Positions 1-63,791 of a DNA stretch of 64,000 nt are shown here, one piece after another. Source of the stretch: Candidatus Melainabacteria bacterium 17Bon1m. Lineage in GTDB: Bacteria > Cyanobacteriota > Vampirovibrionia > Obscuribacterales > Obscuribacteraceae. The position numbers and the translations under genes were made by a program. Within the stretch, counting starts at the first letter, position 1. Each line of letters starts with the position of its first letter. The DNA is taken from assembly GCA_032128875.1 (NCBI GenBank), contig JAVLKG010000001.1, positions 416,001-480,000 on the forward strand. Direction: 5' to 3'. The notes under the pieces were generated by a model. The model ran no database searches and was not told the DNA's origin. It was given only the letters and a program-made list of their open reading frames with translations.

Positions 1-559
1 ACCAGGCAAAAAAGCGCGTCAACTGCAGCCTTTCATTCTCGTCTTGTATGTAATTGGCTGGAAGTGGGAGCTTGCTGTCAGTTGTAAATTCTGAATCGAA
101 GTGTTTGATATTGGCTTTGTACGCTTCAACTTGATTCTCGCTGAAAGTAAGATTTTTACTTTGTTGATCGTAGCGATTTTGTTTGAGTTCGGTGGCCAGC
201 CCACTTTTCAAATCGCCTTGTTCTGCTGCAGACAGTTTTGAATAAGCTTTGCCAAAGCGCTTTAGAGACTCCTTTTCTAATGCCGTTTCTGCTTCAAGGT
301 GCAAGTATTCCGCAGAAAAATCCGGACCGTTGTATGCCCCATGTCCAAACACTGAGCCAACGTCCATCAGTCCATACTTCTGAAAAACACCTTGTCCTGC
401 AAGTATGTCTTCTCCTGTGAAAAGCGTTGCTCCGCTTTGGTCTACCACTCTTTCCGGAATCGGAGGAGCCTGTGTGCTGGTTTCGTGACCCATGAATATC
501 AGTGTCGAAAAACCAAGAATCAAAACGAGCAATACGCTCAGTTTCCATCTCCAAGACAT
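1..559 (-). CDS. norB: Quinol-dependent nitric oxide reductase (qNor), 5' part; runs off the window start
   Basis: Not in the ORF track; translated by hand from ATG at 559: MSWRWKLSVLLVLILGFSTLIFMG...APPIPERVVDQSGATLFTGEDILAGQGVFQKYGLMDVGSVFGHGAYNGPDFSAEYLH...RFFAW, open to position 1. APPIP, GQxVFQKYGLM and GHGAYxGPDF are qNor N-terminal motifs. Confidence 0.9.
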   Translation of the reverse strand, partial: MSWRWKLSVLLVLILGFSTLIFMGHETSTQAPPIPERVVDQSGATLFTGEDILAGQGVFQKYGLMDVGSVFGHGAYNGPDFSAEYLHLEAETALEKESLKRFGKAYSKLSAAEQGDLKSGLATELKQNRYDQQSKNLTFSENQVEAYKANIKHFDSEFTTDSKLPLPANYIQDENERLQLTRFFAW

Positions 560-743
560 GCAATTCTCCCCGCTCTTTAGCATTCGCGAATTTAGGACAA
601 AAGGCTCCGAATAGATGTTAGCAAGGAAAGCTGCTCTCTAACTTTCTGACTGTGGAATAACTCAGAGACTTCGTATAATTAAGGTAAGAATTGTGGATGT
701 TTGTGTCTGCAAGACTTGTTTGAAAAATACGCATTGCAAATCA

Positions 744-779
744 AAATTGATAGGCGACGGAAGAGCCGCCTATCAATTT
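744..779 (-). terminator. Hairpin downstream of the globin gene, probable intrinsic terminator
   Basis: Inverted repeat AAATTGATAGGCG (744-756) / CGCCTATCAATTT (767-779). Confidence 0.6.
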
Positions 780-830
780 CTCCTTCACTCGTTTTGCGAC
801 GAGAGTCGCTCTACGAGCTAAATCATTGTT

Positions 831-1361
831 CTAACGTGCTGATTTCGCTACTGCGCCTTCTAAGACCCAAGGCCGCGGATCGTTTTTCTTGAATCCGTTC
901 GGCTCGAATCCAGCTGCAGTAAGTTCTGCCTGGAATTTCTCGGGATTGTCTGCAGCTTCAATCATAATGTCGCTAACTGTTTTCATCGCCGCTTCCCAGG
1001 TGGCGCGCATTTCATCTGTCCACTCACCTTCTTTGCTGAGATGCTCCGCAAGAACAGCTACTAGATTTTCAGCCACTGCGCCATAGTGCGCATTCTCAGT
1101 CTTGTACTTCAGGTGGCGGATTCCCATTGCGTGCAAGAACGGCAAAAGCATGTCTGGTTTTTCAACCGCCGCCACTATCGACGCAATAGATGCAAGTAAT
1201 TTCTTGTGCTGTTCTTCTGGCGGTGTTGAAAACAGTGGACGAACGCTTGGATATTTCTCGAATAAGCGTGAATAGAAGCTCATTCCCAATGCGGTAGCAC
1301 CACCATTTTCCACTTTTGCACGCTCGAAAGTTTCGCGCAGCAATGCGACGTTAAGCGACAT
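831..1361 (-). CDS. Single-domain globin (Vgb/flavohemoglobin globin-like)
   Basis: FYSRLFEKYPSVRPLF (B10 Tyr, CD1 Phe), proximal His in MGIRHLKY, HYGAVAENL; no reductase domain. Confidence 0.9.
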   Translation of the reverse strand: MSLNVALLRETFERAKVENGGATALGMSFYSRLFEKYPSVRPLFSTPPEEQHKKLLASIASIVAAVEKPDMLLPFLHAMGIRHLKYKTENAHYGAVAENLVAVLAEHLSKEGEWTDEMRATWEAAMKTVSDIMIEAADNPEKFQAELTAAGFEPNGFKKNDPRPWVLEGAVAKSAR

Positions 1362-1401
1362 TGAATTTGACTCCTTCTAAATTTTTTAAACCCGCTAAGA
1401 C

Positions 1402-1818
1402 CTACGATGCTTTCGCCAGAGGGAATTCGGATTCCATTCCCGCTTCTTCCGCCATTTTTTCGCCGATGCCCGCATTTTCTGCTTCGAGCTGTGGCTCAGC
1501 TGGTGTTTCAAACTGCTCTGCATCTTCAACAAGATCAGCGCCTTCTTCCAGTCTTCCGTTGATGACAACGTCGAACAATCCGAAGACAAGCAATCCAGCA
1601 CTAGCTCCGACCGCTGCACCAGCGGCGATGGCATTGATCAATGTTGGAACTATCATCGAATCTTTCAATAAGATGGCCGTTAAGTAGCCACCAATTACGG
1701 TTCCTGCAATGATTGAGACCACAAATCCCTTCAACACTGGCTTTTCCGTTGATATTGCAAACGGTGGAGTAAACTTGTTCATTTTTCCGTTCATATAAAG
1801 TTGAGCAAACATGGTCAT
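1402..1818 (-). CDS. Two-TM membrane protein with acidic tail; paralog of 46301-46669
   Basis: 138 aa; two hydrophobic helices; shares AGAAVGASAG..FGL.DVVI.GRLEE and C-terminal KAS with 46301-46669. Confidence 0.75.
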   Translation of the reverse strand: MTMFAQLYMNGKMNKFTPPFAISTEKPVLKGFVVSIIAGTVIGGYLTAILLKDSMIVPTLINAIAAGAAVGASAGLLVFGLFDVVINGRLEEGADLVEDAEQFETPAEPQLEAENAGIGEKMAEEAGMESEFPLAKAS

Positions 1819-1916
1819 TACCCCTCGAATTCCTTGAGCCGGCTATGAATCTCGAATCACTTAGAGCATGCCGTGGCTCAACAGTAAGATGGTCGCACCA
1901 GTGCGGTTCGCCCCCA

Positions 1917-2025
1917 TCGTTCTCAAGGTTGAGTGTGCGAGCGCTGATCGCTGCCGCCGAGGTAAAGCCGCCACTGGCGGAGGCTTTCGTGCTTTCGTAA
2001 AGTCATCAATAGTCCTTTAGTATGA
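1917..2025. promoter_or_regulatory. Regulon boxes in a divergent promoter (1917-1932, 2010-2025)
   Basis: TCGT-TCTCAAGG-TTGA and TAGT-CCTTTAGT-ATGA; 2008-2025 is the exact reverse complement of 46120-46137. Confidence 0.65.
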
Positions 2026-2116
2026 GTGCCGGATTTTCAGTAACAATAGATTGATGACAGTCCTAGGAACGATATAAACGGTCCGGTGAAAGAACATACT
2101 GAAAAGGTATTGCCTC

Positions 2117-4951
2117 ATGAGGTCCGTTATGTCGAAGGGACTCGCCGACCCAGTCTTTCACGCCGACAGTATTGCCGCAAACTCTAGTGAAAAGCAGATG
2201 CCGAACATTGAAAATGCCGAAGAAAGTGCTGAACCAGGTGCCGGCTCTATCATTCCGGCTTTGCCCGACAAGCCGTTCTTGCTTTCGATCGAGCGAGCAT
2301 CTTTATTGCCTGCACAACAAGTTGCTGCTCGTCTTGAGACTGACGTAGCGCTCGGTTTGAGCCTAGATGAAGCCGCAAGCCGGTTAGAAAGGTTTGGCAC
2401 CAATGAGCTTGGCAAAAGGGTTCAAATCAATCCTATTCATCTATTCTTCAATCAATTTATTTCTACAGTCGTGGCATTGCTTCTCGTCGCGGCAGGCGTT
2501 TCTGAATTTGCCGGTGAGCACATGCAAGCGGCCGGTATTGCCATTGCAGTCTTAATTAATGCTATTGTCGGTTTTATCACTGAGTACAAAGCCGCTGTGT
2601 CTCTGGCTGCGCTGGAAAAGCTCTCCGGTCCCGTAGCGCGTGTGCGTCGAGGCGGGCAAGATTTCGAAGTTCCAGCGGCCGAGATTGTTCCTGGCGATAT
2701 TTTGATCATGGAAGAGGGATCTCGTGTGCCCGCGGACGTCCGGCTGGTCACTTCCTCTTCGCTCAGCCTGGACGAATCGATGCTCTCCGGCGAGAGTATT
2801 CCGGTCTACAAATCTAGCGAATTAGGCGATTCGACCGAGCAAGTTACAGTCGCCTATCAAGGTACTCTGATTCTGAAAGGTCGTGCGAAAGGTGTCGTCG
2901 TCGCCACCGGTAGCAATACCAAATTAGGTCAGCTTGGACATTCACTCACCGAAATTCGCACAAAGTCCACGCCACTTCAAGACGACCTGGAGAAACTTGG
3001 CCGCCAGTTGAGTTTGTTCACCGTCGTGATTTGCGCTGTGTTGTTTGGCTTGGGTTTGCTCCATGGCGAAAAATTGTGGGAAATGGTGCAAGTTTCAATC
3101 GCACTGGCCGTTGCTGCAATCCCCGAGGGGTTGCCTGTAGTTGCGACGCTCGCATTGGCTTCCGGCACCAATCGCATGGTTAAACTTGGAGCGTTGATTA
3201 GAAAGTTGAGTGCGGTAGAAACCCTCGGTTGCACGGAGATAATCTGCACCGACAAGACAGGAACACTTACTCAAAATCAAATGACGGTCACGGATATTGT
3301 TCTTGATGGACGTGAAATAAATGTGTCCGGATTGGGATACACACCTGAGGGTGATTTCCACGAAAACAATTGCGTGGTGCTGGAAGAGGAAAGGTCGTTC
3401 TTAAAACCACTTTTGACTGCGGCCGTTCTTTGCAATGATGCAAAACTTGAGATGCATGAGGACTCCAAGTGGCATATTCACGGAGATCCTACCGAAGGGG
3501 CGCTGCTTACTGTCGGGCTTAAGGCCGGCATTGAGCAGAAGAGCCAGCGAGATGAGTTGCCACGGCAGCATGAGTTTCCGTTCGAGCTCAGCCGTAAGCG
3601 CATGACCACGATTCACCAATCGCAAGGAGGCGATTTCCTTGCTTACACCAAGGGCGCGCCGGAAACTGTGCTGTCTTTGTGCAAAAACTATTTAAGCGCG
3701 GATGGTGTGGCGCAACTCGATGAAACACGCAGAAACTGGTTTCTCGAAAAGAATCTAGAACTGGCGAGTAAGGGACTGCGAGTTCTGGGATTGGCGGCAA
3801 GAGATCTGGCGGGTAAGAAAGTTTCAGCGCACTCCGATGCTGAAACAGATATGACATTTTTAGGGCTGATTGGGATGGCTGATCGTCCAAAAGAAGGTGT
3901 TCTCGAAGCAATCGAAGAATGCAAGCGTGCCGGCATCAAAGTAGTGATGGTAACTGGAGACCATCCCGCAACAGCCGTTTCAATAGCGCGCGACTTGAAT
4001 ATCGTGCCATTTTGTTCTACGGAGGCTGCTCATAAGGTAGTAGTCGGCAGCGAGCTTGAACAGTTAGGCGCGAGCGAAATTGGCGCACGCCTGGCCGATT
4101 GTAGCGTCCTTGCACGTGTTCAGCCGGAGGCAAAGCTTTCCATTGTTCGTGCGTTGCAGTCCAGTGGAAAAGTCGTCGCTATGACAGGTGATGGTATCAA
4201 CGACGCACCCGCGTTACAGCAGTCCGATATCGGCGTCGCGATGGGGAAATCGGGTACTTCCCTTGCGCGCGAAGCCTCCGATATGGTCATTACCGACGAT
4301 AATTTCAGCACAATTGTCCATGCAATCGAGCAGGGTCGTGTCATTTATGCCAATATATCTTGCGCCGTTGCCTATCTACTTACTGCCAGCCTGGCGTCTG
4401 TTCTTACCGTGGCGGCTGCTGTTGTTTTCGATACGGGGCTGCCCCTGTCACCACTTCAATTGTTGTGGTTGAACCTGATTATGCATATCTTTCCTGGACT
4501 TGGTCTTGTTCTGCAGCGTGGTCGTCCAGGCATCATGCGGGAAGCACCTCGCGGAAGAAAGCAATCTCTTCTCGGAAAGAGAGAGTATACGCATATAGTG
4601 TTGCGCTCGCTGGTTGTTTCTCTTTTGACTATTTTTGCTGCACAAAACGTACAAGGGCAATCGCTGGAATATGTAAGAACGGTTGTTTTGGCGACGATTT
4701 CGATTGCACTACTTCTGCAAGCTTGGTCTTGGTTGGCATTCAAGCGTAACGCGGATGATTGGTCATATCTAAGCAGCGTTGCAATGTACATCAACACGGC
4801 CCTGGGTATCGCTTTGCTTTTGTTGGCGGTTCTTTTCCCTCCGATGCAAGCAATCCTTGGTACGGTTTGCTTGAGCAACGCACACTGGGGAATGGTTATT
4901 CTCTTTGCACTCTTCGGCTACTTGCTCACTTCTATCATTCAGGATTATTAG
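2117..4951 (+). CDS. Cation-translocating P-type ATPase (P2A/Ca2+-like, CtpF-like)
   Basis: IPEGL, DKTGTLT phosphorylation motif, KGAPE, TGD, GDGINDAP; start codon uncertain. Confidence 0.93.
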   Translation: MRSVMSKGLADPVFHADSIAANSSEKQMPNIENAEESAEPGAGSIIPALPDKPFLLSIERASLLPAQQVAARLETDVALGLSLDEAASRLERFGTNELGKRVQINPIHLFFNQFISTVVALLLVAAGVSEFAGEHMQAAGIAIAVLINAIVGFITEYKAAVSLAALEKLSGPVARVRRGGQDFEVPAAEIVPGDILIMEEGSRVPADVRLVTSSSLSLDESMLSGESIPVYKSSELGDSTEQVTVAYQGTLILKGRAKGVVVATGSNTKLGQLGHSLTEIRTKSTPLQDDLEKLGRQLSLFTVVICAVLFGLGLLHGEKLWEMVQVSIALAVAAIPEGLPVVATLALASGTNRMVKLGALIRKLSAVETLGCTEIICTDKTGTLTQNQMTVTDIVLDGREINVSGLGYTPEGDFHENNCVVLEEERSFLKPLLTAAVLCNDAKLEMHEDSKWHIHGDPTEGALLTVGLKAGIEQKSQRDELPRQHEFPFELSRKRMTTIHQSQGGDFLAYTKGAPETVLSLCKNYLSADGVAQLDETRRNWFLEKNLELASKGLRVLGLAARDLAGKKVSAHSDAETDMTFLGLIGMADRPKEGVLEAIEECKRAGIKVVMVTGDHPATAVSIARDLNIVPFCSTEAAHKVVVGSELEQLGASEIGARLADCSVLARVQPEAKLSIVRALQSSGKVVAMTGDGINDAPALQQSDIGVAMGKSGTSLAREASDMVITDDNFSTIVHAIEQGRVIYANISCAVAYLLTASLASVLTVAAAVVFDTGLPLSPLQLLWLNLIMHIFPGLGLVLQRGRPGIMREAPRGRKQSLLGKREYTHIVLRSLVVSLLTIFAAQNVQGQSLEYVRTVVLATISIALLLQAWSWLAFKRNADDWSYLSSVAMYINTALGIALLLLAVLFPPMQAILGTVCLSNAHWGMVILFALFGYLLTSIIQDY

Positions 4952-4957: not shown

Positions 4958-5025
4958 CTGTTCGGAAGAATGACTCTGGAATAGTTCAGCAGAATGATAA
5001 TTGAATGTCTGATCGCAGTCACAAT
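4958..5025 (+). promoter_or_regulatory. Tandem regulon boxes (4958-4973, 4982-4997) plus -10-like CACAAT (5020-5025)
   Basis: CTGT-TCGGAAGA-ATGA and TAGT-TCAGCAGA-ATGA, 24 bp apart; 22-nt spacer to CACAAT. Confidence 0.6.
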
Positions 5026-5061
5026 TGTAGAATTCAAATTCATTAGCACTTGAGGTTGGAT

Positions 5062-5514
5062 ATGAAAGTACTAATTGCGCAAGACGAATCAGAATGCTCG
5101 AAGACCGCTCTTGAGTCGGTGTTGAACAGAACCTGGCCGGAGAATTCGCAATTCCGACTTGTAAATGTCCATGAGCCGATTCATGGCTACGACCCAGTGA
5201 TTTACACTCCTCATTCCATAGTGTCGCTGAAAGAGGCGGACAAAGAGATTTACGCCGCCAAGGAAGCACAGCTCAAAAAGAGTCTCGAGCTTCTGAAAAC
5301 AAAGTTCAATGATTGTGAAGTCTGTGGAGAGGTTTTAACCGGGCATCCGAAAGACCGCATTATTGAAGACGCTGAAGGTTGGGGGGCGGATCTTATTGTT
5401 GTTGGTACACATAGCAGAAAGGGATTTGCCCGCGCTTTCCTTGGTAGTGTCGCTTCTGAGGTGGCAAGCCAAGCAGATTGCTCGGTAGAGATTGTAAGAG
5501 AGAGAAAACACTAA
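5062..5514 (+). CDS. Universal stress protein
   Basis: MKVLIA start; ADLIVVGTHSRKGFARAFLGSVA USP motif. Confidence 0.92.
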   Translation: MKVLIAQDESECSKTALESVLNRTWPENSQFRLVNVHEPIHGYDPVIYTPHSIVSLKEADKEIYAAKEAQLKKSLELLKTKFNDCEVCGEVLTGHPKDRIIEDAEGWGADLIVVGTHSRKGFARAFLGSVASEVASQADCSVEIVRERKH

Positions 5515-5531
5515 GCGAATCGAGAGAACAA

Positions 5532-5948
5532 ATGACACACCGAACACAAGTTACATTCAAGAACATGAAACATTCGCCTGCAATCGAAGACATGGCCAGG
5601 CAGCATAGCGACAAGCTCAGCAAATACTACGACGGCATTCAGAGCTGTCGAGTAACTATCGAGATACCACATCAGAAGCACGAAAAGGGCAATGTCTTTC
5701 AGGTGCGGATTGATATGACTGTACCTAAGGCTGAACTTGTTGTTGAGACTAAAGCAACCAACAGCCCTGAGTATGAAAAAATCGAAGTCGCGCTTAATGA
5801 CTCATTCGACATGGCAAAACGCCGACTTGAAGACTATTCTCGCAAGCGGCGCGGCATGGTGAAGAAACATGCTGAACACGGCAACAAGGATGAAGAGTCC
5901 GAGATCCGCGCAATTGAAAGAGAACAGATGGAAGAGTTTATGAGGTAG
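5532..5948 (+). CDS. HPF/RaiA-family ribosome-associated (hibernation) protein
   Basis: QVTFKNMKHSPAIE...I.SCRVTIE.PHQ.H.KG..FQVRID..VP..ELVV...A..DSFD.A.RRLE pattern. Confidence 0.85.
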   Translation: MTHRTQVTFKNMKHSPAIEDMARQHSDKLSKYYDGIQSCRVTIEIPHQKHEKGNVFQVRIDMTVPKAELVVETKATNSPEYEKIEVALNDSFDMAKRRLEDYSRKRRGMVKKHAEHGNKDEESEIRAIEREQMEEFMR

Positions 5949-6263
5949 AGAAGATAGAGAGTGTTGAGAAAGATCTGGATTACAGGCAAGGAGAAGAGTT
6001 GGATAGTGTTGCCACCCCCGCGAAGTCTGGCTCTACTGAAAGACCGCAATAGTCCTTTGGAGCGATGCGCGAGCTTAAACGACGTAGCGACGCTATCTGG
6101 ATTGTCGACAAATTAGTCCGAAAAAACGATGGACGATTAGCTGGGTGGTGGAAAAATACAGATACGACGCAGGTTCTCCAGTGAGAGCGACCAGGGATGG
6201 TTACTGCCGAGGGCGGCACCGGCCCTGCGAACAATTTACATAACTCGGATGTGGAGCGGAGAA

Positions 6264-6773
6264 ATGAAAATACTTGTTGCTATTGATGACGATTCCCTCT
6301 GTGGCACAGTGATTGATTTTGTCGCCAGGGTATTTTCTCATCACGCCACTATCGTAAAGCTTCTCCATGTAGTCCAGCCGTCGCCGGTAGTTGACACTGC
6401 GACTTCGCTTTGCGGACATGGAGAAAATCATCAAATACTGGAGCAGAGAGTTCAACAGGCTTCGGCATTCTTAAAGACGCTGCAAAAAGATTTGCGCTCA
6501 AAAATGCTACCGTCTGAGCCCGTTGAAGTTTCTGTCTTATTGGGTACTCCTCATCGCGTCATTCTTGATTGTGCCGAAGAGTTCGGTGCCGACCTTATTG
6601 TGATCGGTTCTCATGGTCATGGAGACCTGTCGCGACTGAAGATTAACAGCGTCTCCTATGCAGTTCTCTCCCACGCCGATTGTGCTGTTACCATAGTTAA
6701 AGCGCAGCAGGTGTTTCAAAACGAAGATGCAACCGAAACCTCATTACCGAAGTCAGCCCGGCTACTAGCTTAG
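6264..6773 (+). CDS. Universal stress protein
   Basis: MKILVAID; ADLIVIGSHG; box TAGT-CCTTTGGA-GCGA upstream at 6050-6065. Confidence 0.9.
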   Translation: MKILVAIDDDSLCGTVIDFVARVFSHHATIVKLLHVVQPSPVVDTATSLCGHGENHQILEQRVQQASAFLKTLQKDLRSKMLPSEPVEVSVLLGTPHRVILDCAEEFGADLIVIGSHGHGDLSRLKINSVSYAVLSHADCAVTIVKAQQVFQNEDATETSLPKSARLLA

Positions 6774-6786
6774 AACTCATCGCAGA

Positions 6787-7335
6787 ATGCAGCTTGAAAT
6801 GACAAAACTGAAGACCTCCCACTATCGTGTGTTGGAAACTTTGCGCGACGGACGTGAGGTGGAGATTAGGTCGATTGTTCCTCAAGACAAAAAGGTTCTT
6901 GCTGAAGGAATGCATCACCTCAGCCCGACTTCTTTGTATTACAGATTCCTCACTCCCAAAAGGGAGCTGACCGAGAAAGAGCTTTCCTACTTCACAGAAG
7001 TGGATTTCTTGCACCATGTTGCGCTCCTTGCTGCCGTAGAGCAAGATGGCAGTTATCTGCCTGCAGGAGTTGGTCGTTATGTGATGTCTAATTCTGCCGA
7101 TTCAACATGCGCCGAACTTGCTTTTGCTGTGAGCGAGGAATTTCAAGGATTGGGCATTGCTACATTGCTTTTGAAGCATCTCACTTTGATAGCCAGGGAA
7201 AATGGTCTCAAGGCATTTTCTGCGCTCGTCCTGGCGGATAACAGGAAGATGTTAGAAGTTTTCAAAAACTGCAACTTGGAAATGACCACAAAAGCGAACA
7301 ATGCAGGTGTATTAGAAATAAGACTGGAAATCTGA
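6787..7335 (+). CDS. GNAT N-acetyltransferase (stand-alone Pat-like GNAT domain)
   Basis: LSPTSLYYRF, AELAFAVSEEFQGLGIATLLL (acetyl-CoA motif A), N.KML.VF. Confidence 0.88.
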   Translation: MQLEMTKLKTSHYRVLETLRDGREVEIRSIVPQDKKVLAEGMHHLSPTSLYYRFLTPKRELTEKELSYFTEVDFLHHVALLAAVEQDGSYLPAGVGRYVMSNSADSTCAELAFAVSEEFQGLGIATLLLKHLTLIARENGLKAFSALVLADNRKMLEVFKNCNLEMTTKANNAGVLEIRLEI

Positions 7336-7399
7336 TACCGAAGGATGAAATCTAATCATCCGCAAAGATCATGCACTTAATTTTGTTGCGCTGCACAAT
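7333..7399 (+). promoter_or_regulatory. Tandem regulon boxes (7333-7348, 7356-7371) plus -10-like CACAAT (7394-7399)
   Basis: TGAT-ACCGAAGG-ATGA and TCAT-CCGCAAAG-ATCA; 22-nt spacer to CACAAT. Confidence 0.65.
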
Positions 7400-7427
7400 G
7401 GTCACTGAAGCGCACATGTATTGAGGA

Positions 7428-7901
7428 ATGGTCATGATTACCAGGATTTTGATACCGGTTGAAGATCTTCTTTTCGAAGAAGAGATAAGAGAGTTTTTGG
7501 TGCAGCTAAGCACATTGGCAATCAAGCTGAAAGTTTTGCATGTCATCGATGCGAATGAAGTTGTGCTCCAATGGCCCAGCGCAGAATACGAACGTGAATC
7601 GGTAGCTCTCGTGCGCACAATATGCGAGAACCTGAAGAACTATTTTCCTGGTGTAGATGTAGTCTCTTCAGTCCGCGAAGGTATCGTTAAAGAAGAGATT
7701 GCAAAAGAAGCTGAATCCTTTCAAGCCGATTTGATCCTGATGGGTTCGCATGGAAGAAAAGGCTTAGGGAAGTTTCTTTTGGGAAGTACCGCCAAGGACG
7801 TAATACCTCTCTCGCCTTGCTCAGTGGTACTATTGCGAACCAAGAAATCTGGTGTTAAGAAAACTAAGGTGGCAGAAGCATCAACGGCTCACCAAGACTG
7901 A
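7428..7901 (+). CDS. Universal stress protein
   Basis: RILIPVE; ADLILMGSHGRKGLGKFLLGST. Confidence 0.9.
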   Translation: MVMITRILIPVEDLLFEEEIREFLVQLSTLAIKLKVLHVIDANEVVLQWPSAEYERESVALVRTICENLKNYFPGVDVVSSVREGIVKEEIAKEAESFQADLILMGSHGRKGLGKFLLGSTAKDVIPLSPCSVVLLRTKKSGVKKTKVAEASTAHQD

Positions 7902-7981: not shown

Positions 7982-8482
7982 TTATCCCGCTTTTACTTCG
8001 ATCTTTTTGCCATCGGCAAGAGCATCTTTTGCCTTAGGCATAACTACTTTCAAAACACCGTTCTTGTAGGAGGCTTCGATGCTGTCTTTTTCCACTGTGC
8101 ATGGCAAAGGCAAGAGGCGATAGAACGAGCCGTAACTTCTCTCCATTCTGTAATAGTTTTTGTCCTTTTCCTCTTTTTCGGAATGCTTCTCACCCTTGAT
8201 CGAAAGTGCATTGCCTTCCACTTTTACCTCAATGTCTTTCATTTCGACGCCGGGGAGTTCAGCAGACACTTCGATGGTTTTTTCGCTATCCTTCATGTCT
8301 ACTTTTGCATTGAAGTCAGAAACCGGCTCCAGCCAGAAGGTACGAGCAAAAGGAAGTCCGCTCTTAAATTCATCAAAGAGATGATTCATCTCCTCTTGCA
8401 AAGCGTGAAACGGGTGAGATTTTCGAGGTGTAATTCCAGTCGATTCCTTTTTTGTTTCCTTTACTGGTGTAGTTGTTGTCAT
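7982..8482 (-). CDS. Hsp20/alpha-crystallin small heat shock protein
   Basis: AELPG, LSIKGEK, ERSYGSFYR, A.YKNGVLKV.MPK. Confidence 0.95.
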   Translation of the reverse strand: MTTTTPVKETKKESTGITPRKSHPFHALQEEMNHLFDEFKSGLPFARTFWLEPVSDFNAKVDMKDSEKTIEVSAELPGVEMKDIEVKVEGNALSIKGEKHSEKEEKDKNYYRMERSYGSFYRLLPLPCTVEKDSIEASYKNGVLKVVMPKAKDALADGKKIEVKAG

Positions 8483-8581
8483 AATCCTTCTCCTTCTAAG
8501 ACGGGATTTTTTTCAGTATTCTGTTACTGCAACCAAAGAGCAACCTGGACATATCTTGACTCAATCAACTTTGCGTCAGCA

Positions 8582-56587: not shown

Positions 56588-58077
56588 CAGGCTCGTTTCT
56601 CCGCTAATGCTTCGGTACTTGTGGCTTGAGACAACGGCAACTCCAAAATAATTGAATTGCCATCGCCAAGGCGCTTGTAACTAATCGATCCGTGATGCCT
56701 CTGCAAAATTGGGACTGCTATAGCTAGACCTAGTGTGTGGACTTTGCAGCCGCCGGCTATTTGTGCTTGATGCAGTTTGTCGAAAAGTTTTGACGCTTCT
56801 TCGTCTCCTAGAGGCACTGCTTGGTCTGACACTTCCAGTTGATAACAATCATTCGACGCAGCTCCATTCACTATGATCCTGCTACCTTCTGGCGCCCTTG
56901 AAGCTGAAATGCGAAGTATTCTTTCCAGCACCCGAGAAATTTGCTCTCGGTCGATCTTTAGCGGCGCATCTTCGGTTCGGTTCACCACATGGAAACAACC
57001 AAGATATGATGCTTGCCCTAAAGTATGAGATACCAGATCTTCGCTATTGCAATCCTTCAAATCGAGCTTCACTTCACTATTTTCAAAGCTTTCCATAAGA
57101 AGCAGGTCATTAACTAAAGAGAGGCAATTTTGAAGAGCCTGACTGGCCTCTTCCAGGTTTTGTGATCCGCTTTCGCTTAGTGAGTCAGACATGAATTTGC
57201 TCAATGTTGCGAGTGATATATCGGCAGCCATGAGCGGGCTGCGAACATCGTGAGCCATCATTTGCATGAGCGAGCGACGATAATCCGCTATGTCCGCGAG
57301 TTTCCAACTGACTTTAGCCAATTCAACGCTGATTTCCCGCAACTCGTCGCTGCCTGTAATGACTTCATTTAAGGGTTCATTTAGGGTCAATTTTTTTGCC
57401 ATGTCGGATAAGGCATTTATTCTGCCCATCATGTTTTTGTGAAATTCTCGGTACAAAAACAGCGCTAGAAGGACGTTTGCAACGAGTCCGACCCAGATAA
57501 TCTGAGAGATTAGCGTTATTTCCCGTCTTTGGGACTGGAGCGACTGCAAATAGTTATCTCTGATTGCGGCTTGTTCGTCGTGTAAAAGACGGCTCTCTTT
57601 TCCGCCAATTTTTACCCATTCGTTAATGCGCCTCATCTTTATGAATATGTTGGCGAAGCTCATGCTTGGGTCTTCGGCCTTGATGAAGATTTCTTGTTGT
57701 CTTTTTAAGAGGCTTGATATCTCACGTTGAAAAGTCGCGTGGTTCTCGTCTCTAGGCATATTGTTTTCGACCTGAGCCAGGTCATCACGAACAATCGCCC
57801 AGCCTTGATTGATGAGCGGGCTGAAGAATCTATGCGACCCATTCATCATCGCATTACTTCCACCCAGAAGAATTTCCGTGACAGCATAAATAGCATGCGT
57901 GAGCTTGAGTACTACTGTCATTTGTTTCCGACTCGTTTCTATTTGAGATTCTGCCTGTGTTGCAGCTCTATTCAGAATCAAGAGGAGGAAGCAATTTATG
58001 AGCAGAGGCAGAAGCACCAGGGAGAGTCCTTGTAATAGGAGCCCTGATTTGAAACGTGGTGTCTTTAAGATAGGCAC
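56587..58077 (-). CDS. Membrane histidine-kinase-like protein; canonical H-box, degenerate ATPase
   Basis: 2 TM; MAHDVRSPL; N box reads ERILRISA, G1 reads DQAVPL. Confidence 0.8.
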   Translation of the reverse strand: MPILKTPRFKSGLLLQGLSLVLLPLLINCFLLLILNRAATQAESQIETSRKQMTVVLKLTHAIYAVTEILLGGSNAMMNGSHRFFSPLINQGWAIVRDDLAQVENNMPRDENHATFQREISSLLKRQQEIFIKAEDPSMSFANIFIKMRRINEWVKIGGKESRLLHDEQAAIRDNYLQSLQSQRREITLISQIIWVGLVANVLLALFLYREFHKNMMGRINALSDMAKKLTLNEPLNEVITGSDELREISVELAKVSWKLADIADYRRSLMQMMAHDVRSPLMAADISLATLSKFMSDSLSESGSQNLEEASQALQNCLSLVNDLLLMESFENSEVKLDLKDCNSEDLVSHTLGQASYLGCFHVVNRTEDAPLKIDREQISRVLERILRISASRAPEGSRIIVNGAASNDCYQLEVSDQAVPLGDEEASKLFDKLHQAQIAGGCKVHTLGLAIAVPILQRHHGSISYKRLGDGNSIILELPLSQATSTEALAEKRA

Positions 58078-58306
58078 TCGAGTTCTCGCTTACTTGCCTG
58101 CAAGCAAGTGATGCATACTCATTTATTTTGTCAGGTTAAAGACGAAATTGGCAAATTCGATGCTTGGATTGGTTCATGCAGCCTGGGTTCAGAACCTGGC
58201 TAGATTTTGCGCTGTTCTCTCATCCTTGCGTACGATATAGGCACTTGCATACCTTGTTATCATTCTTCTGCCTTGGAACTCCGAAATTCGCAAAGGCAGG
58301 TGTGTC

Positions 58307-58522: not shown

Positions 58523-58609
58523 GATATTAGATTCGTAGCCGGATGTTCTTGCACTCGAGGTGACTGTTCATTTTGCTCGGATGGGTACACCCAAGATTAT
58601 TCGGTTTAA

Positions 58610-58625
58610 TCATCCCAAAGAACGA
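58610..58625. promoter_or_regulatory. Regulon box upstream of alpha-2-macroglobulin
   Basis: TCAT-CCCAAAGA-ACGA. Confidence 0.6.
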
Positions 58626-58819
58626 TACGCCTGCCTCTGAAAGCGCCGGAGATTAGCGTTTTTCAGTGCTTGTCAGTTGTTCCCGGAATTCGCTGTAAAT
58701 TAGTTTCACCCCTGCAAAACCTGCAACTGACCTCAATTATGGTAAACCTTTCACCATGCAGCGGTTTTGTGCAATCGCTCTGCGTGAAAGTCTTCGTCAT
58801 TACATGCTGGGGTAAAGTT

Positions 58820-61800
58820 ATGCGCTCTTTCGTTTTCGATAAGTGGTTGTCTCGTGGTAGCAAGCGGCGCAGGTCGAAAACAGATATTTCTATTGCACTC
58901 GGGCTGACTGTTGTTTCCCTAAGCATCGCCAGTTCGCAAGCTATGACCGGTAGTATTCCAACTGAATTTTGGAAGAAAACTGCTGCTCAATCGCTCGGTA
59001 GCTCGAATCGTTTTCTTACATTCATGAGCACAGATAAGCCACTCTACAAGAGTGGTGAGAGAGTCTTCGTTCGTGGCGTTATGCTTGACTCTTCAAGTCA
59101 CCAACCCAAAACAGGTTACGGCGGCAACGCATATATTCAAGTGCGGGGGCCGCGCGGGCAAGCCATTGCGAGCGGACAGGCTCAAATTCACGACAGCATT
59201 TGGTCTTATGCTTGGAACATCAGCCGCGATCAAGCCGGCGGTGAATATACGATTGTTGTCAGCTACCCATTTGGAGGGCACGCACCAGCGGAGCGCAAAG
59301 TGGACGTACGCTCATATCGCGCTCCACGGCTGAAGACGCAGCTGATTTTTGCACGCGATGGATACGGACCGGGTGATGTTGTCACTGCATCGCTATACGC
59401 GAAACGCGCCGAAGGCGGCATTCCTGCGAATGCAAAAGTGACGATTAAACCACTCGTAGACGGAGTTCCAATTGAGGCAGGCACAAGCAAAATTGACTCG
59501 AATGGCTTTTGTCGCATTTCATTTAGTCTGCCGCAACACATTGAGCGTGGTGACGGAACGCTTGCGCTTGTGATTGAAGACCAAGGTGTTGTTGAAACAA
59601 CATCCAAGACGATTCCAATTCTGTTGCAGAGCGTCGATTTGCAAATGTTTCCAGAGGGTGGTGACATTGTCGCTGGGTTTAAGAATCGTGTGTATGTGCA
59701 GGCGTTTTTGCCTAATGGCAAACCTGCCGATCTTCAGGCGCGTGTTATAGAAGAGCCGATTTCAGGCAAGAGGGTGGTCGCCAGTGTTTCGCATAAGCCC
59801 AATAAAAAGGGCGCAAAGAAAACGACTGTCGTCCACAATATCGTCAATTCTACGAATGCGCTTGCGTTCTTCCGCACAGAGCATGAAGGAATGGGCCGTT
59901 TTGAATTCACTCCTCAGGCAAACAAAAAATACTTTTTGCAAATTTCAAAACCGTCGGGAATTAAGAAGCTATACCCGCTACCCGCAGTGAAGTCAATCGG
60001 CGCGGTACTCCATTCAGAAAGTGATGTGGTCAAAAAGTTACAGCCGCTTCGCATCAAGGTTGGCAATAAATCTGCATGCCGAATTACCGTATCGAAGCAA
60101 GACAGAGAAATCGCATCGCGAATCATTAGTGCAACAGCCAGAGCAAACGGCACAAGTGGTGAGTTGGTGCCTATCGAGTTTCCTTTACCGCATGATGTTG
60201 ATGGTGTCTTGACTGTGACGGTATGGAATGAGTTCGACAAGCCTCTAGCTGAACGGTTGATTTTCCGTGAGCCCGAGAAGACTCTCAACATCACAGTGCG
60301 CGCAGATAAAAACACCTATGCGCCTGGCGAGAAAGCGCAAATTACTGTGCGCACTACAGATGAGAATGGCAGACCAATATCGGCGATGGTTGGAATGACC
60401 GTCACTGATGACAGTGTTCTGCAAATGATTGAAAAGAGAGACCAGCCACCACGTCTTCCTGTAATGGTTCTTCTCGAGCCTGAAGTGAAAGATCTGGCAG
60501 ATGCGCAGTTTTACCTCAATCCTGCTATTCCGAAATCCAGCCTAGCTACGGACCTTTTGTTAGGGACACAAGGATGGCGACGCTTCGCGTATCTAACTAC
60601 TGATGCGTTTATTCAGCAGTACGGAGATAAAGCTAGACGTGTTTTAGTAATGTCAGAGCAAAGAAACCAGGCACCGCAGCAGTTTCCCATCTCCAGTCCA
60701 CGTCGTAATCGCGCATCCTTTGGTTCTCCTCTTCGCACCAGTATCGGTGCCGGTACCGGCGCAGCCTTAGGAACTGCAATTGGTGCTATCTCTGGAGGGC
60801 GTACGAATGGCAGAGGAGCGTGGTCTGGTACCGCCATCGGTGCTGGAACTGGAGTGCCGTCTCAGCTGAAGCGGAAGTTCGATGCTGACAGTCAGCCGGG
60901 CGCACGTTTTAAATTTGCGCCCAACCAGTATGTGAATGAACCGCTCAGCCTTCCCGAAGAGGTGGGACGAGTTGAGGGTCCACGCGACGTAAATATGTTC
61001 CAGGTCGAACCCACAATTATTGATGAGCGACACTATTCTACTGGGCGTGCAGAGCGTCATCAGAAGACGAGTCCGACACTGCCTGAAGGTGCACCAATTC
61101 CGGACGAAGGGCAGACCGGGCAGCTTGCGCAATTGAGTAGTATGGATAGGTATTCTTTCTACACCCCACCGCGCAGTACGGACACAATCAATTCGATGTT
61201 TGCGGTGCGTGTCTTCTCACACCAAGCTCGACCGAACAGAAGCAGTACTGATCGCAAGGACTTCAGCGAGACTCTCTTTTGGTCCCCCGGAACCAAGACC
61301 GATGCGCGAACTGGCGAAGCAACAATCAGTTTTGATCTTAGCGATAGCATTTCCACGTTTGAAGTTGCGGCCGATGGATTTTCCAGTGGTGGCTTAATTG
61401 GTGCGAAGAAGCTTGAGATCAAATCTCTGAGACCTTTCTATGCGGAAGCGAAAATTCCGCTTGAGGTCACATCTGGCGACCAAATCATGTTGCCGCTCAA
61501 TTTGGTAAACGGTACTAATAGTGTTCTCACCGCAGTAGGTTTGAAAGTCGATCTACCTCAAGCGTTTAAATTGCTTGCTCCTCTCAAACTGCCGCAGCAG
61601 TTGAGTGGTGGCGAGAGAGCAAGAGTGTTACAGCCCATTCAAGTCGGGGCAGCAGACAAGGTATCGCATCTCAGAATTGAAGCAAAGGCCGGCAACAACG
61701 TCGACATTGTCGAAAGAGAAATCGAAGTTAGACCGGTAGGCTTCCCTGTAGAGAAGGCGTTTGCTGGAGTTTTAGAACCCGGCAAATCCGCCAAGATTAG

Positions 61801-63331
61801 TGTGAATATCGAGGAAAGTATGGTACCGGCAAGCTTGGGCACAAAGGCGGAAATTTATCCAACGCCGCTTGCAAATCTCACAAGCGCGCTAGAGCGTTTG
61901 ATTCAGGACCCTTATGGCTGTTTTGAGCAGACTTCATCAACAAGCTATCCGCTGACGATGGCTCAGCAATACTTCAAGTCTCATCCGGATGTTGATCCTA
62001 AGTTGATTTCGACCTCTCGCGAGAAACTTGAGGACGGTTATAAGAAGTTGGTTTCGTTCTGGTGCCCGGATCGTGGATACGAGTGGTTTGGACACAACCC
62101 AGGGCATGAGCCCCTTACAGCTTACGGATTAATGCATTTTGCTGACATGAGAAAGGTCGCCAAAATCGACGAGGTGATGTTTACAACCACACGTGCTTGG
62201 CTGATGAAGCAGAAAGATGGCAAGGGCGGCTTTACACGCAAGGCTCAAAGTATTCATACCTGGACTGCCGACAAGGACTGCTCTAACGCGTATATCGTCT
62301 GGTCTCTACTGGAAACAGGGGAGCAGGCTTCTAATCTTAAATCTGAGTTGGATTCATTAAGAAGCGCAGCGACTGCCAGTCAAGACAGCTATGTTGTTGC
62401 ACTAGCAGCTAACGCGTTCGATTTGGCAGGAGATAAGCAATTTTCGAAGTCATTGATGAAGCGGCTTGCATCTCTGCAGAAGAGTGATGGCAGTGTCGAC
62501 AAGGTGAAGAATTCAGTTGTCGGTAGTTCTGGTGAAGCTCTCGAATTGGAGGGTGTTGCTCTGGCAACTCTTGCGTGGTTACGCAACGACGAGTTTTCGG
62601 CCAATGTTCAAAAGAGCATGAAATTCCTTGCCGAGTCTTGCAAAGCTGGAAGATATGGTTCTACCCAATCTACAGTTTTATCTCTGCGAGCAATTCTTGC
62701 TTACGACAAGAAGAATGCTCACCCAAAGGCACCCGGAAAGATTCACGTCTTTGCCGATGGAAAGCCGGTTGCAGATGTAGCTTTTGATGAGAAAGCAAAG
62801 GAATCCATCAAGCTGCCAGATTTGACCGAAATACTCTCTCCTGGCGAGCATGAAATTGAGTTGAAAATGGAAGGCGGTTCTGCGATGCCATATGCAGTGG
62901 CAGCAAATTACAATCGTTTGACGCCTGAAAGCAGTAAAGACTGTAAGCTTGATCTCAGTGTCAATCTCTCGCAGCACCAACTGATTGAAGGTTCTTCGGC
63001 GGAAGTCATTGCAACGGTCACCAACAAGGTTGATGCTGTCGTTCCAAATCCTGTAGCAATTATCGGTTTGCCAGGAGGATTTGAGCCGCGACATACGCAA
63101 CTCAAAGAACTTGTTAAAGGACGCAAAATTGATGCCTACGAAGTGCGTGGGCGCGAGGTCGTGCTCTACTGGCGCGGACTAGATAAGAACGAAAAGATCT
63201 CGGTACCTATCAGTGTAATTGCTTCTGTTCCGGGTAAGTTCACTGGACCAGCAAGTCGTTCATATCTGTATTACACAGATGAGCATAAGAAGTGGACGGA
63301 TGGATTGACGGTCGAGATTGCAGCGAGGTAA
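58820..63331 (+). CDS. Alpha-2-macroglobulin-family thioester protein
   Basis: STDKPLYK.GE.V (MG2), FPEGG, D...Y.PGE, R.DF.ETLFW, thioester PYGCFEQ, STQ.T; N-terminal signal-like segment. Confidence 0.92.
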   Translation: MRSFVFDKWLSRGSKRRRSKTDISIALGLTVVSLSIASSQAMTGSIPTEFWKKTAAQSLGSSNRFLTFMSTDKPLYKSGERVFVRGVMLDSSSHQPKTGYGGNAYIQVRGPRGQAIASGQAQIHDSIWSYAWNISRDQAGGEYTIVVSYPFGGHAPAERKVDVRSYRAPRLKTQLIFARDGYGPGDVVTASLYAKRAEGGIPANAKVTIKPLVDGVPIEAGTSKIDSNGFCRISFSLPQHIERGDGTLALVIEDQGVVETTSKTIPILLQSVDLQMFPEGGDIVAGFKNRVYVQAFLPNGKPADLQARVIEEPISGKRVVASVSHKPNKKGAKKTTVVHNIVNSTNALAFFRTEHEGMGRFEFTPQANKKYFLQISKPSGIKKLYPLPAVKSIGAVLHSESDVVKKLQPLRIKVGNKSACRITVSKQDREIASRIISATARANGTSGELVPIEFPLPHDVDGVLTVTVWNEFDKPLAERLIFREPEKTLNITVRADKNTYAPGEKAQITVRTTDENGRPISAMVGMTVTDDSVLQMIEKRDQPPRLPVMVLLEPEVKDLADAQFYLNPAIPKSSLATDLLLGTQGWRRFAYLTTDAFIQQYGDKARRVLVMSEQRNQAPQQFPISSPRRNRASFGSPLRTSIGAGTGAALGTAIGAISGGRTNGRGAWSGTAIGAGTGVPSQLKRKFDADSQPGARFKFAPNQYVNEPLSLPEEVGRVEGPRDVNMFQVEPTIIDERHYSTGRAERHQKTSPTLPEGAPIPDEGQTGQLAQLSSMDRYSFYTPPRSTDTINSMFAVRVFSHQARPNRSSTDRKDFSETLFWSPGTKTDARTGEATISFDLSDSISTFEVAADGFSSGGLIGAKKLEIKSLRPFYAEAKIPLEVTSGDQIMLPLNLVNGTNSVLTAVGLKVDLPQAFKLLAPLKLPQQLSGGERARVLQPIQVGAADKVSHLRIEAKAGNNVDIVEREIEVRPVGFPVEKAFAGVLEPGKSAKISVNIEESMVPASLGTKAEIYPTPLANLTSALERLIQDPYGCFEQTSSTSYPLTMAQQYFKSHPDVDPKLISTSREKLEDGYKKLVSFWCPDRGYEWFGHNPGHEPLTAYGLMHFADMRKVAKIDEVMFTTTRAWLMKQKDGKGGFTRKAQSIHTWTADKDCSNAYIVWSLLETGEQASNLKSELDSLRSAATASQDSYVVALAANAFDLAGDKQFSKSLMKRLASLQKSDGSVDKVKNSVVGSSGEALELEGVALATLAWLRNDEFSANVQKSMKFLAESCKAGRYGSTQSTVLSLRAILAYDKKNAHPKAPGKIHVFADGKPVADVAFDEKAKESIKLPDLTEILSPGEHEIELKMEGGSAMPYAVAANYNRLTPESSKDCKLDLSVNLSQHQLIEGSSAEVIATVTNKVDAVVPNPVAIIGLPGGFEPRHTQLKELVKGRKIDAYEVRGREVVLYWRGLDKNEKISVPISVIASVPGKFTGPASRSYLYYTDEHKKWTDGLTVEIAAR

Positions 63332-63374
63332 ACAACCAGCAGGAAGAAAGCCCTTCGGCTGAATTATTCACTTC

Positions 63375-63420
63375 AAACAAAGGAGGTTTCCAGTTAAATA
63401 ACCGGAAACCTCCTTTGTTT
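63375..63420. terminator. Bidirectional intrinsic terminator
   Basis: AAACAAAGGAGGTTTCC (63375-63391) / GGAAACCTCCTTTGTTT (63404-63420). Confidence 0.85.
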
Positions 63421-63461
63421 GTGCGTTGGGTGAGCTGCTGAAGCTAGCTGCATTTTCCTTG

Positions 63462-63791
63462 CTAGTTCAAGCTCTCAAACTTCAATTGCTTTTCTGCTTC
63501 CAACCAATCCTCGCGATCGAAACCATGTGCGTATCCGCGTTGTTCGAAGAGCAAATAGGCGCGTTGTGCAATTTGCTCGAATTGGATCTGTGAAGACTGT
63601 GCAGTTTTCTTCTCGATTTTTTCAGGTGCCTTGATGGCTTCTGCTGTTTCCGTTTGAATCGGTTTTTCTGCCGGCGTTGGTTTTTCAACTGTTGCAGATT
63701 TGGCTACCGGAGCGCTCTTTGTGGATTTTGCTGCTGTTGTTTTGGGTGCTGGATTTTTTGGTGCTGGATTTTTAGTCGATGTTGTTTTCAC
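63462..63791 (-). CDS. DUF2934-domain protein with K/A/P/T-rich N-terminus
   Basis: IAQRAYLLFEQRG..HG.D.EDWLEAE.QL; KNPAP repeated twice; start uncertain. Confidence 0.8.
   Translation of the reverse strand: MKTTSTKNPAPKNPAPKTTAAKSTKSAPVAKSATVEKPTPAEKPIQTETAEAIKAPEKIEKKTAQSSQIQFEQIAQRAYLLFEQRGYAHGFDREDWLEAEKQLKFESLN

Follow-up and report, generated by a model that had tools for sequence, protein, structure and literature searches.

A globin-coupled histidine kinase and a NarL-type regulator within a palindrome-marked gene cluster of Obscuribacterales, a candidate low-oxygen or nitric oxide regulon

Introduction

Mycobacterial DosR is reported to control about 48 genes that are induced by hypoxia, nitric oxide (NO) and carbon monoxide (CO), and the lxa locus of Burkholderia cenocepacia is described as a contiguous set of about 50 genes, with a shared inverted-repeat motif at 17 intergenic points, that is needed for anoxic survival (PMC3721108). 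Here we describe a locus with overlapping gene content from Candidatus Melainabacteria bacterium 17Bon1m, a member of the Obscuribacterales. It is a stretch of 64,000 nucleotides (assembly GCA_032128875.1, contig JAVLKG010000001.1, positions 416,001 to 480,000 of the forward strand), called the window below, with coordinates counted from its first letter. The window encodes a soluble globin-coupled histidine kinase and a divergently transcribed NarL/FixJ-family response regulator, and a degenerate 20-bp palindrome precedes most of its transcription units. On balance, and with slightly better than even confidence, we read the window as the core of an Obscuribacterales transcriptional regulon run by this kinase and regulator, with low O2 or NO as the likely signal.

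In the DosRST system, the sensors DosS and DosT carry tandem GAF domains, with the heme in GAF-A, and a dimerisation domain of the HisKA_3 type, which is also that of NarX. The dosR gene is autoregulated, the half-site of the DosR box is GGGACT, and the Mycobacterium smegmatis hydrogenase Hyd3 is a DosR-dependent group 3b enzyme. In FixLJ, FixL holds its heme in a PAS domain and has a HisKA-type kinase; its partner FixJ is a receiver (REC) and LuxR/GerE protein that activates low-oxygen genes, usually through a short cascade (fixK, nifA). Operators of the NarL family consist of inverted heptamers in a 7-2-7 arrangement bound by a dimer.

In M. smegmatis, DosR-type clusters are reported to lie beside Hyd3 and to be induced at low O2 (PMC2799521). 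Rv2030c is described as combining phosphoribosyltransferase (PRTase) and erythromycin-esterase (Ere) domains (PMC4410610), and a study of the M. avium DosR regulon reports that a desaturase and a hemoglobin are added in some species (PMC11876180). The lxa genes are said to include six universal stress proteins (USPs), an alpha-crystallin, a cation ATPase, a metal-dependent RNase, an ATP-dependent Zn protease and a cytochrome c (PMC3721108). For NmpU, the globin kinase of the Myxococcus xanthus NmpRSTU system, heme is reported to be required for autophosphorylation, and the NmpR regulon (USP, P-type ATPase, cbb3 oxidase) to be hypoxia-responsive (PMC11841059). The source lineage of the window, Obscuribacterales (Melainabacteria), consists of non-photosynthetic relatives of cyanobacteria; one of them, Ca. 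Obscuribacter phosphatis, is described as respiring aerobically and anaerobically, fermenting, and living across oxic and anoxic phases (PMC4040986).

Sensor kinase and response regulator

Six-frame open reading frames (ORFs) of the window were scanned against Pfam and NCBIfam. A preliminary description of this DNA had pointed to a soluble protoglobin-PAS-histidine kinase with an intact proximal His, divergently paired with a NarL/LuxR-type regulator, and both proteins were borne out:

37772..39388, + strand: soluble globin-coupled histidine kinase (Pfam, alignments)
36919..37680, - strand: NarL/FixJ-family response regulator (Pfam, PDB matches)

Pfam assigned to the kinase (37772/37784-39388) the domain order Protoglobin, PAS, HisKA and HATPase_c, with the Protoglobin domain at residues 16-168 (2.5e-36), and a hydropathy scan found zero transmembrane-like segments. 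The ORF itself opens with a GTG at 37772; the ATG at 37784 is the likely start, since the closest homologue starts at the same position. In phmmer searches the globin domain matched GsGCS (2w31, 5e-9), HemAT (1or4, 3e-7) and AfGcHK (5ohe, 5e-3), and a HMMER alignment placed Y55 on the distal Tyr70 (B10) and H108 on the proximal His123 (F8) of HemAT. Both residues are invariant across an alignment of 23 homologous sequences with identity down to 57%, as are the H-box H318 and the N, G1, F and G2 boxes. By its sequence, the kinase belongs to the globin-coupled sensor class, and we infer that its globin binds heme. The PAS domain contains a C211-x-x-C214 motif (window 38402-38413), likewise invariant in the 23 homologues, which could provide a second input through redox state or a metal. 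Among the at least 120 matches listed to the kinase, all with at least 58% identity and identical domain order, the nearest homologues were labelled Candidatus Melainabacteria or Obscuribacterales.

The regulator joins a Response_reg domain (8.5e-27) to a GerE domain (4.2e-19) and is separated from the kinase by 91 bp. Its PDB matches were VraR (7e-46) and NarL (1.5e-34), both over the full length, followed by ChrA (1.4e-31) and DevR (3c3w, 7e-31); NarL and MadR were best in NCBIfam, where every match fell under its cut-off. These matches identify it as a generic member of the NarL/FixJ family with a REC domain and a LuxR/GerE helix-turn-helix. Orthology to DosR was rejected, as VraR, NarL and ChrA all outscored DevR. 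Pfam recognises a DNA-binding domain in no other protein of the 64-kb window.

Related loci were drawn from one genome per species (354 confirmed), of which the best 80 loci, nearly all from metagenome-assembled genomes of Obscuribacterales, were used and surveyed within +/-10 kb of the kinase. In 66 of the 68 loci of at least 8 kb the regulator is encoded on the opposite strand, upstream of the kinase, and this conserved divergent pairing argues that the two proteins are a cognate pair. Six loci (L006, L015, L029, L032, L072 and L079) carried the pair at 57-68% identity under the titles Drouetiella, Bryobacterales, Proteobacteria, Oculatellaceae and Flavobacterium psychrophilum. These titles look like mislabelled or contaminated bins and not true occurrences.

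A palindrome shared by promoters of the window and its relatives

An exact search for palindromes with arms of 6-7 nt and spacers of 0-8 found none that recurred in perfect form, so the element is degenerate and required a probabilistic model. De novo expectation maximisation (EM) on the intergenic DNA of the window returned, as its top motif, a 20-bp palindrome with a consensus of approximately AATCATCCTTAAGGATGATT. Its log-likelihood was 93.2, compared with 38.7-52.5 in dinucleotide shuffles, all six of which scored lower. The strongly conserved positions are T3, C4, T6 and C8 in one arm and G13, A15, G17 and A18 in the other, the total information content is 12.3 bits, and the whole can be read as 7-2-7 inverted heptamers, approximately TCATCCT-TA-AGGATGA. 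Three strings noted by eye and by counts as separate motifs (AGTCC, AGTATGA and GAACGATA) were unified by EM as variants of this one palindrome.

A position weight matrix (PWM) built from 21 training sites was scanned over the whole window, with 100 block-wise dinucleotide shuffles as the null. It gave 27 matches at 12 bits or more, where shuffles averaged 1.3 (maximum 5), and 16 at 14 bits or more, where they averaged 0.27. Seven of the 27 lay outside the training set; six of these are promoter-proximal (at USP 6249, Hsp20 and its divergent pyridoxal-phosphate (PLP) enzyme, the avidin-like gene, the tandem USP, position 36896 and the membrane kinases) and one is inside hydB. Counted on the corrected gene map, a site of at least 11 bits lies no more than 350 bp upstream of 23 of 30 transcription units. 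Units without such a site include the kinase, the regulator, the own spacer of the NO reductase qNor, the DLH hydrolase, the desaturase and one cytochrome c. At many promoters the sites are paired, 23-93 bp apart. A shared intergenic palindrome was noticed throughout the window in the preliminary description; whether or not in the same form, one is present far above chance, and its placement before most units agrees with the clustered regulon proposed there.

The window PWM also found 235 sites in 68 related loci, against 26 expected. With the near-identical locus L001 left out, 169 of 227 sites in 67 loci were intergenic, in DNA of which the intergenic share is 12.5%, and 190 of the 227 were promoter-proximal. 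De novo EM on 562 intergenic segments from 55 relatives with a kinase identity of at most 65%, the window excluded, placed the same consensus on top with approximately 320 sites. Sites stood before the first gene of an operon for USPs in 61/116 cases, cytochrome c in 15/26, ATPases in 11/16, rhodanese in 7/7, PEP (phosphoenolpyruvate) synthase in 6/8, hydB in 5/11 and globin in 3/3; the figure for genes of the relatives without a homologue in the window was 62/351. In the 54 loci of at least 15 kb, the neighbourhood of the kinase included a USP in 43, a hydrogenase large subunit in 24, a di-heme cytochrome c in 24, a IIA ATPase in 20 and PEP synthase in 15. Synteny and taxonomy in related genomes were among the checks that the preliminary description named; the pair and the palindrome are conserved in loci that come almost entirely from Obscuribacterales.

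The relation of the palindrome to the promoter was examined in 150 gene-oriented, unambiguous sites. In 21 of them a TANNNT hexamer begins at +31 from the palindrome centre, compared with a background of 1.9 +/- 1.35 for each position, and hexamer positions 2, 5 and 6 show an excess of A and T. Taken as the -10 element, this hexamer would place the centre of the proximal palindrome near -42.5, a geometry that would suit an activator substituting for the -35 element. Presumably, the regulator is the protein that binds the palindrome.

Genes and sites of the window

The gene types named in the preliminary description were all recovered with Pfam and NCBIfam, including 12 USPs and Hsp20. The G+C content is steady at 45-49% across the window, and tRNA and Rfam scans of the window found nothing. 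The remaining features are as follows; scores in bits refer to the palindromes, in the order given, and "non-training" marks sites outside the PWM training set.

2..1818, - strand: small protein with two transmembrane segments (1402-1818), single-domain globin (831-1361) and partial qNor (2-583); Pfam and transmembrane scan; sites 106 and 199 bp upstream
1915..2027, no strand: operator region with palindromes 1915 and 2008 (16.0, 18.4 bits), between the operon of the small transmembrane protein and globin and the ATPase
2117..4951, + strand: type IIA P-type ATPase (SERCA/PMR1-type, Ca-type, CtpF-like class); Pfam; TIGR01522 at 635 bits, under the cut-off
4980..5948, + strand: palindrome 4980 (14.9 bits), then an operon of USP 5050-5514 and hibernation-promoting factor (HPF) 5478-5948; Pfam
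6048..7335, + strand: palindromes 6048 and 6112 (13.0, 10.2 bits; non-training; inside the spurious ORF 5980-6234), then USP 6249-6773 and GNAT protein 6787-7335
7331..7901, + strand: palindromes 7331 and 7354 (13.6, 13.8 bits), then USP 7428-7901
7982..10105, both strands: Hsp20 7982-8482 (-) and Cys/Met PLP enzyme 8747-10105 (+), with palindrome 8682 in the divergent promoter region (14.7 bits, non-training)
10204..10798, - strand: avidin-like protein 10204-10659 (Pfam Avidin 5.8e-20) with palindromes 10708 and 10779 (11.1, 16.8 bits, non-training)
11115..13951, both strands: Ere-like protein 11115-12473 (+), DLH hydrolase 12584-13276 (+) and PRTase 13250-13951 (-); Pfam
14280..16409, + strand: palindromes 14280 and 14967 (11.9, 16.0 bits), then rhodanese, TPR, DUF2934 and MIase-like proteins
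16416..21148, - strand: hydrogenase maturation operon hypF-hypC-hypD-hypE; Pfam; sites 21188 and 21243 in the divergent region
21188..22791, + strand: palindromes 21188 and 21243 (17.1, 14.2 bits), then USPs 21353, 21818 and 22234; Pfam
22852..24745, + strand: palindrome 22852 (14.3 bits), then hycI-hypA-hypB-hypC; Pfam
24761..30400, + strand: palindromes 24761 (a perfect inverted repeat) and 24990 (17.1, 12.7 bits), then [NiFe] hydrogenase 25034-29064 and CoA-transferase 29081-30400; Pfam
30410..36915, - strand: run of beta-CASP hydrolase, di-heme cytochrome c, acyl ligase, C92 amidase, cytochrome c and tandem USP (Pfam), with palindromes 36576 and 36896 (15.5, 13.2 bits, non-training)
39385..42011, - strand: USPs 39385 and 39918 and tandem USP 40922 (Pfam), with palindromes 41935 and 41992 (9.3, 13.3 bits)
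42011..46028, - strand: USP 45470-46018, resolvase-N-like protein, 138-aa protein and PEP synthase 42011-44461 (Pfam), with palindrome 46009 (13.0 bits)
46118..51722, + strand: palindromes 46118, 46197 and 49220 (16.7, 13.3, 13.6 bits), then a small protein with two transmembrane segments, MgtA-type P-type ATPase 46641-49214, USP and FtsH; Pfam
51819..52599, + strand: palindrome 51819 (17.4 bits), 194-aa gene 51946-52530 without a family match, and orphan palindrome 52580 (16.5 bits)
54199..55036, both strands: divergent small genes (108 aa, -; 118-aa protein with three transmembrane segments, +) with palindrome 54548 (12.7 bits); transmembrane scan
55151..58237, - strand: two membrane histidine kinases 55151-56587 and 56587-58077 (Pfam; two or three transmembrane-like segments), with palindrome 58218 (15.8 bits, non-training)
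58608..63331, + strand: strongest palindrome 58608 (19.7 bits), then alpha-2-macroglobulin-like gene 58670-63331; Pfam

The 12 USP genes start at 5050, 6249, 7428, 21353, 21818, 22234, 35538, 39385, 39918, 40922, 45470 and 49237, and those at 35538 and 40922 are clearly tandem. Other products in the window are a CoA-transferase, a beta-CASP hydrolase, three c-type cytochromes, an acyl ligase, PEP synthase, FtsH and a fatty-acid desaturase. In the hydrogenase operon (25034-29064), Fer4_22, NAD_binding_1/DHODB_Fe-S, Oxidored_q6 and NiFeSe_Hases domains represent the Fe-S (beta), FAD/NAD (gamma), small (delta) and large (alpha) subunits of a group 3b-type [NiFe] enzyme. The top NCBIfam matches of the large subunit are the alpha subunits HydA/ShyA of sulfhydrogenases, under the equivalog (curated) cut-offs, and group 3b is the type that these best matches indicate.

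Hsp20 (7982-8482, -) was identified by PF00011 (E=2e-24); a longer ORF on the opposite strand over it (7964-8710, +) is spurious. Two further Hsp20 candidates, 1402-1818 and 46214-46669, were ruled out, with no family at E up to 1. The latter two (- and + strand, respectively) are paralogous small proteins, each with two transmembrane-like segments and with a common C-terminal stretch. Each adjoins one P-type ATPase and lies behind a palindrome, and they may be accessory subunits of the ATPases. The MgtA-type ATPase (46641-49214) matched TIGR01524 at 850 bits, over the cut-off. The ORFs 5980-6234, 10660-11043, 36639-36905 and 58220-58453 contain palindromes and lack a family match, and were therefore treated as non-coding.

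The partial qNor (2-583, -) includes the NorB cytochrome c-like N-terminal domain; it is not preceded by a separate site, so we assume that it is transcribed together with the globin. For the Ere-like, DLH and PRTase genes the nearest sites are distant (10779, 14280), which makes their membership in the regulon weak. The orphan palindrome 52580-52599 lies in the convergent spacer between the 194-aa gene and the desaturase, where no convincing small ORF adjoins it; it may serve as the promoter site of a small RNA, or be a remnant. Neither of the two membrane histidine kinases has a neighbouring regulator, and their position behind a palindrome suggests further sensors that are themselves under control of the regulon. 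The alpha-2-macroglobulin-like gene (1553 aa) begins 52 bp after the strongest palindrome and is a surprising member for a regulon of stress or hypoxia genes; the related loci, covered to +/-10 kb from the kinase, showed no homologue of it.

Two small DUF2934 proteins are encoded, one in the rhodanese-TPR unit (15853-16071, +) and one at the right edge of the window (63462-63791, -). Between USP 45470 and PEP synthase, the gap is filled by two genes. The 193-aa product of 44877-45458 (-) has a resolvase N-terminal-like fold (Pfam E=5.5e-4; ESM Atlas TM 0.55-0.63) without a DNA-binding domain, and that of 44464-44880 (-) is a Cys-rich protein of 138 aa for which ESM Atlas gave nothing usable, with low recognition. 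Homologues of the two were found in 19 and 15, respectively, of the 54 large related loci.

Comparison with described systems

The window resembles DosRST in combining a heme-based sensor kinase (by prediction, in this case) with a NarL-family regulator and a 20-bp palindromic operator, and in its content of multiple USPs, an alpha-crystallin Hsp20, an HPF-like protein, a cation ATPase and Ere/PRTase proteins, as well as a hydrogenase, which M. smegmatis shares. However, the window kinase lacks GAF and HisKA_3 domains and has Protoglobin, PAS, HisKA and HATPase_c instead, and the regulator is closer to VraR and NarL than to DevR and has no box at its own promoter. The half-site is approximately TCATCC in place of GGGACT and is arranged differently; some window sites have an AGTCC variant half-site, in an arrangement opposite to that of the DosR box. 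Nitroreductases are absent from the window, and the phylum is Cyanobacteriota whereas DosRST belongs to Actinomycetota. Regulon content matches DosRST, while sensor architecture, regulator orthology and operator do not, and by these features the window system is not a member of that family. Of the DosR-like gene content claimed in the preliminary description, the overlap with published regulons stands, but the part that relied on Ere, DLH and PRTase is weakened by the distance of their sites, and the nitroreductases are missing. Its proposal of independent wiring is supported by a protoglobin-PAS-HisKA sensor, a regulator other than DosR and a box unlike that of DosR.

The lxa locus is similar in that USPs, Hsp20, ATPases, a beta-CASP hydrolase, FtsH and cytochromes c lie behind one motif in the window as well. 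The lxa motif is described as an Anr/Fnr-like TGA-N6-TCA with CRP/Anr candidate regulators (PMC3721108), whereas the window has a palindrome that can be read as a NarL-style 7-2-7 repeat, and a globin-sensor two-component system. AfGcHK of Anaeromyxobacter and NmpU share with the window kinase an N-terminal sensor globin, with proximal His and distal Tyr, that drives a histidine kinase. The similarity to AfGcHK is weak (E = 0.005) and confined to the globin domain, and the window kinase has an additional PAS domain. NmpU is reported to act through a multi-component relay onto an NtrC-like regulator (PMC11841059), whereas the window has a divergently encoded NarL-type DNA-binding protein as presumed direct partner, and a defined palindromic box. 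The overall wiring proposed for the window is that of FixLJ, which differs in holding its heme in a PAS domain and not a globin, and in feeding a short cascade as opposed to more than 20 clustered promoters.

Discussion

The arrangement described above suggests the following mechanism. The heme of its N-terminal globin would let the soluble kinase sense a diatomic gas (O2 and possibly NO or CO), with the PAS domain and its invariant CxxC perhaps supplying a second input, and the kinase would in turn determine whether the divergently encoded NarL/FixJ-type regulator is phosphorylated. A dimer of the phosphorylated regulator would bind the 20-bp palindrome, the proximal copy of which, near -42.5, would replace the -35 element and activate transcription. 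More than 20 promoters would thereby be switched on, for the 12 USPs, Hsp20, HPF, FtsH, two P-type ATPases and the group 3b-type hydrogenase with its maturation genes, and further for PEP synthase, the CoA-transferase, c-type cytochromes and the globin (possibly with qNor). The most likely inducer would be oxygen depletion and/or NO, and in function the system would be analogous to the survival programmes that DosRST, FixLJ and Anr/lxa run at low oxygen.

Low O2, NO or CO is the presumed signal. The low-oxygen interpretation draws on gene content, namely the fermentative hydrogenase and its maturation genes, PEP synthase, CoA-transferase, the NO-handling globin/qNor, HPF, a chaperone, a protease and USPs, and on published low-oxygen regulons that contain the same gene classes. 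Several observations weigh against it, or against the assignment to this pair of proteins. The evidence for cognate pairing is conserved adjacency, and the kinase carries HisKA (PF00512), not HisKA_3. The promoters of kinase and regulator have no box in the window and nearly always lack it in relatives (box present at the kinase in 5/65, at the regulator in 1/62), so that the pair seems not to be autoregulated through the palindrome. The specificity of the box was judged within +/-10 kb of the kinase in relatives, and the -10-like peak covers 21 of 150 sites only. Among the boxed genes, alpha-2-macroglobulin (at the strongest site), the avidin-like protein, TPR and rhodanese are not evidently connected with hypoxia; the sites of Ere, DLH and PRTase, on which part of the DosR analogy was built, are all distant, and the window lacks the nitroreductases that are reported as a hallmark of the mycobacterial regulon (PMC11876180). 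Finally, O2 binding is reported to raise the kinase activity of AfGcHK, a globin kinase with characterised biochemistry (PMC8697598), and the same polarity, in a direct circuit from kinase to activator, would give induction under oxic conditions.

The last point leads to the strongest alternative, in which the circuit is the same and the signal or its polarity differs. The kinase might be most active with O2 bound, or respond to redox through the PAS CxxC. In place of hypoxia, the inducer would then be exposure to oxygen, re-aeration, stress of an oxidative or nitrosative kind, or an imbalance in energy or redox state. In favour of it, in addition to the O2-activated AfGcHK, Myxococcus is reported to have an extra relay between the heme kinase NmpU and the hypoxia-active NmpR (PMC11841059), C211 and C214 of the PAS domain are invariant, and USPs, Hsp20, FtsH and HPF are general stress genes. 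However, the group 3b-type hydrogenase and its maturation genes, PEP synthase, the CoA-transferase and qNor/globin suit anoxic or NO conditions better, and the same gene classes are reported to be induced at low oxygen in Burkholderia (PMC3721108) and in mycobacteria (PMC2799521, PMC11876180). We regard induction by oxygen or general stress as unlikely, yet a serious contender, and with an O2-activated kinase such as AfGcHK in view, the polarity of signalling could lie in either direction.

Somewhat less probable still is that the palindrome serves a transcription factor encoded outside the window, LuxR/NarL-type or unrelated, with the globin kinase and its regulator as mere neighbours or members of the set. 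The missing boxes at the two promoters would fit this, as would the presence of two more histidine kinases behind the box, and the survey of relatives extended +/-10 kb from the kinase. Against an outside factor, the regulator is the sole recognised DNA-binding protein in 64 kb, the pair always sits among box-bearing promoters in relatives, and the inverted repeat, if read as 7-2-7, would resemble NarL-type operators. That there is no regulon, the palindrome being chance, intergenic composition or a small mobile repeat and the gene clustering a coincidence, is very improbable and strongly disfavoured: the motif is degenerate (12.3 bits in total), with strong sites inside hydB (25270) and in a convergent spacer (52580), but it occurs 27 times where 1.3 are expected, outscores six of six shuffles in EM, was rediscovered independently in 55 relatives, keeps a fixed distance to a -10-like element and is enriched by gene class.

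A regulon run by the globin kinase and its NarL-type partner is thus the reading we retain. In its broadest form, which we put forward tentatively and with somewhat less than even confidence, the two proteins would be the master O2/NO switch, throughout Obscuribacterales, of a conserved anoxic-survival and fermentative-hydrogen regulon of more than 20 promoters. It would be an independent invention beside DosRST of Actinomycetota and Anr/lxa of Burkholderia, and for the first time a globin-coupled kinase would be joined directly to a DNA-binding partner, with operator and regulon defined. Precedents for parts of such a system are known, in the reported 50-gene low-oxygen locus of Burkholderia with its shared motif (PMC3721108) and in the heme-globin kinase of Myxococcus above a hypoxia-responsive regulon (PMC11841059). 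What appears new, as predicted from the genomes, is the combination of a globin-coupled kinase and direct DNA-binding partner with an activator-position operator and a large clustered target set across Obscuribacterales. A search of full-text literature, which did not extend to subscription-only papers, found no description of a globin-kinase regulon in Melainabacteria or Obscuribacter.

The biochemistry of globin-coupled histidine kinases is well studied, and their physiological outputs are mostly unknown. The window kinase comes with a candidate partner, a candidate operator placed as for an activator and a coherent set of targets conserved across an uncultured order, so that its function becomes directly testable. 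The host lineage is the dark sister of the oxygen-producing cyanobacteria and lives across oxic-anoxic transitions. The system looks like an independently built counterpart to the mycobacterial low-oxygen dormancy system, with approximately 60 kb behind one palindrome. A survival toolkit of USPs, Hsp20, a hibernation factor, FtsH, cation ATPases, a group 3b hydrogenase and NO detoxification would then have come under heme-based control at least once more.

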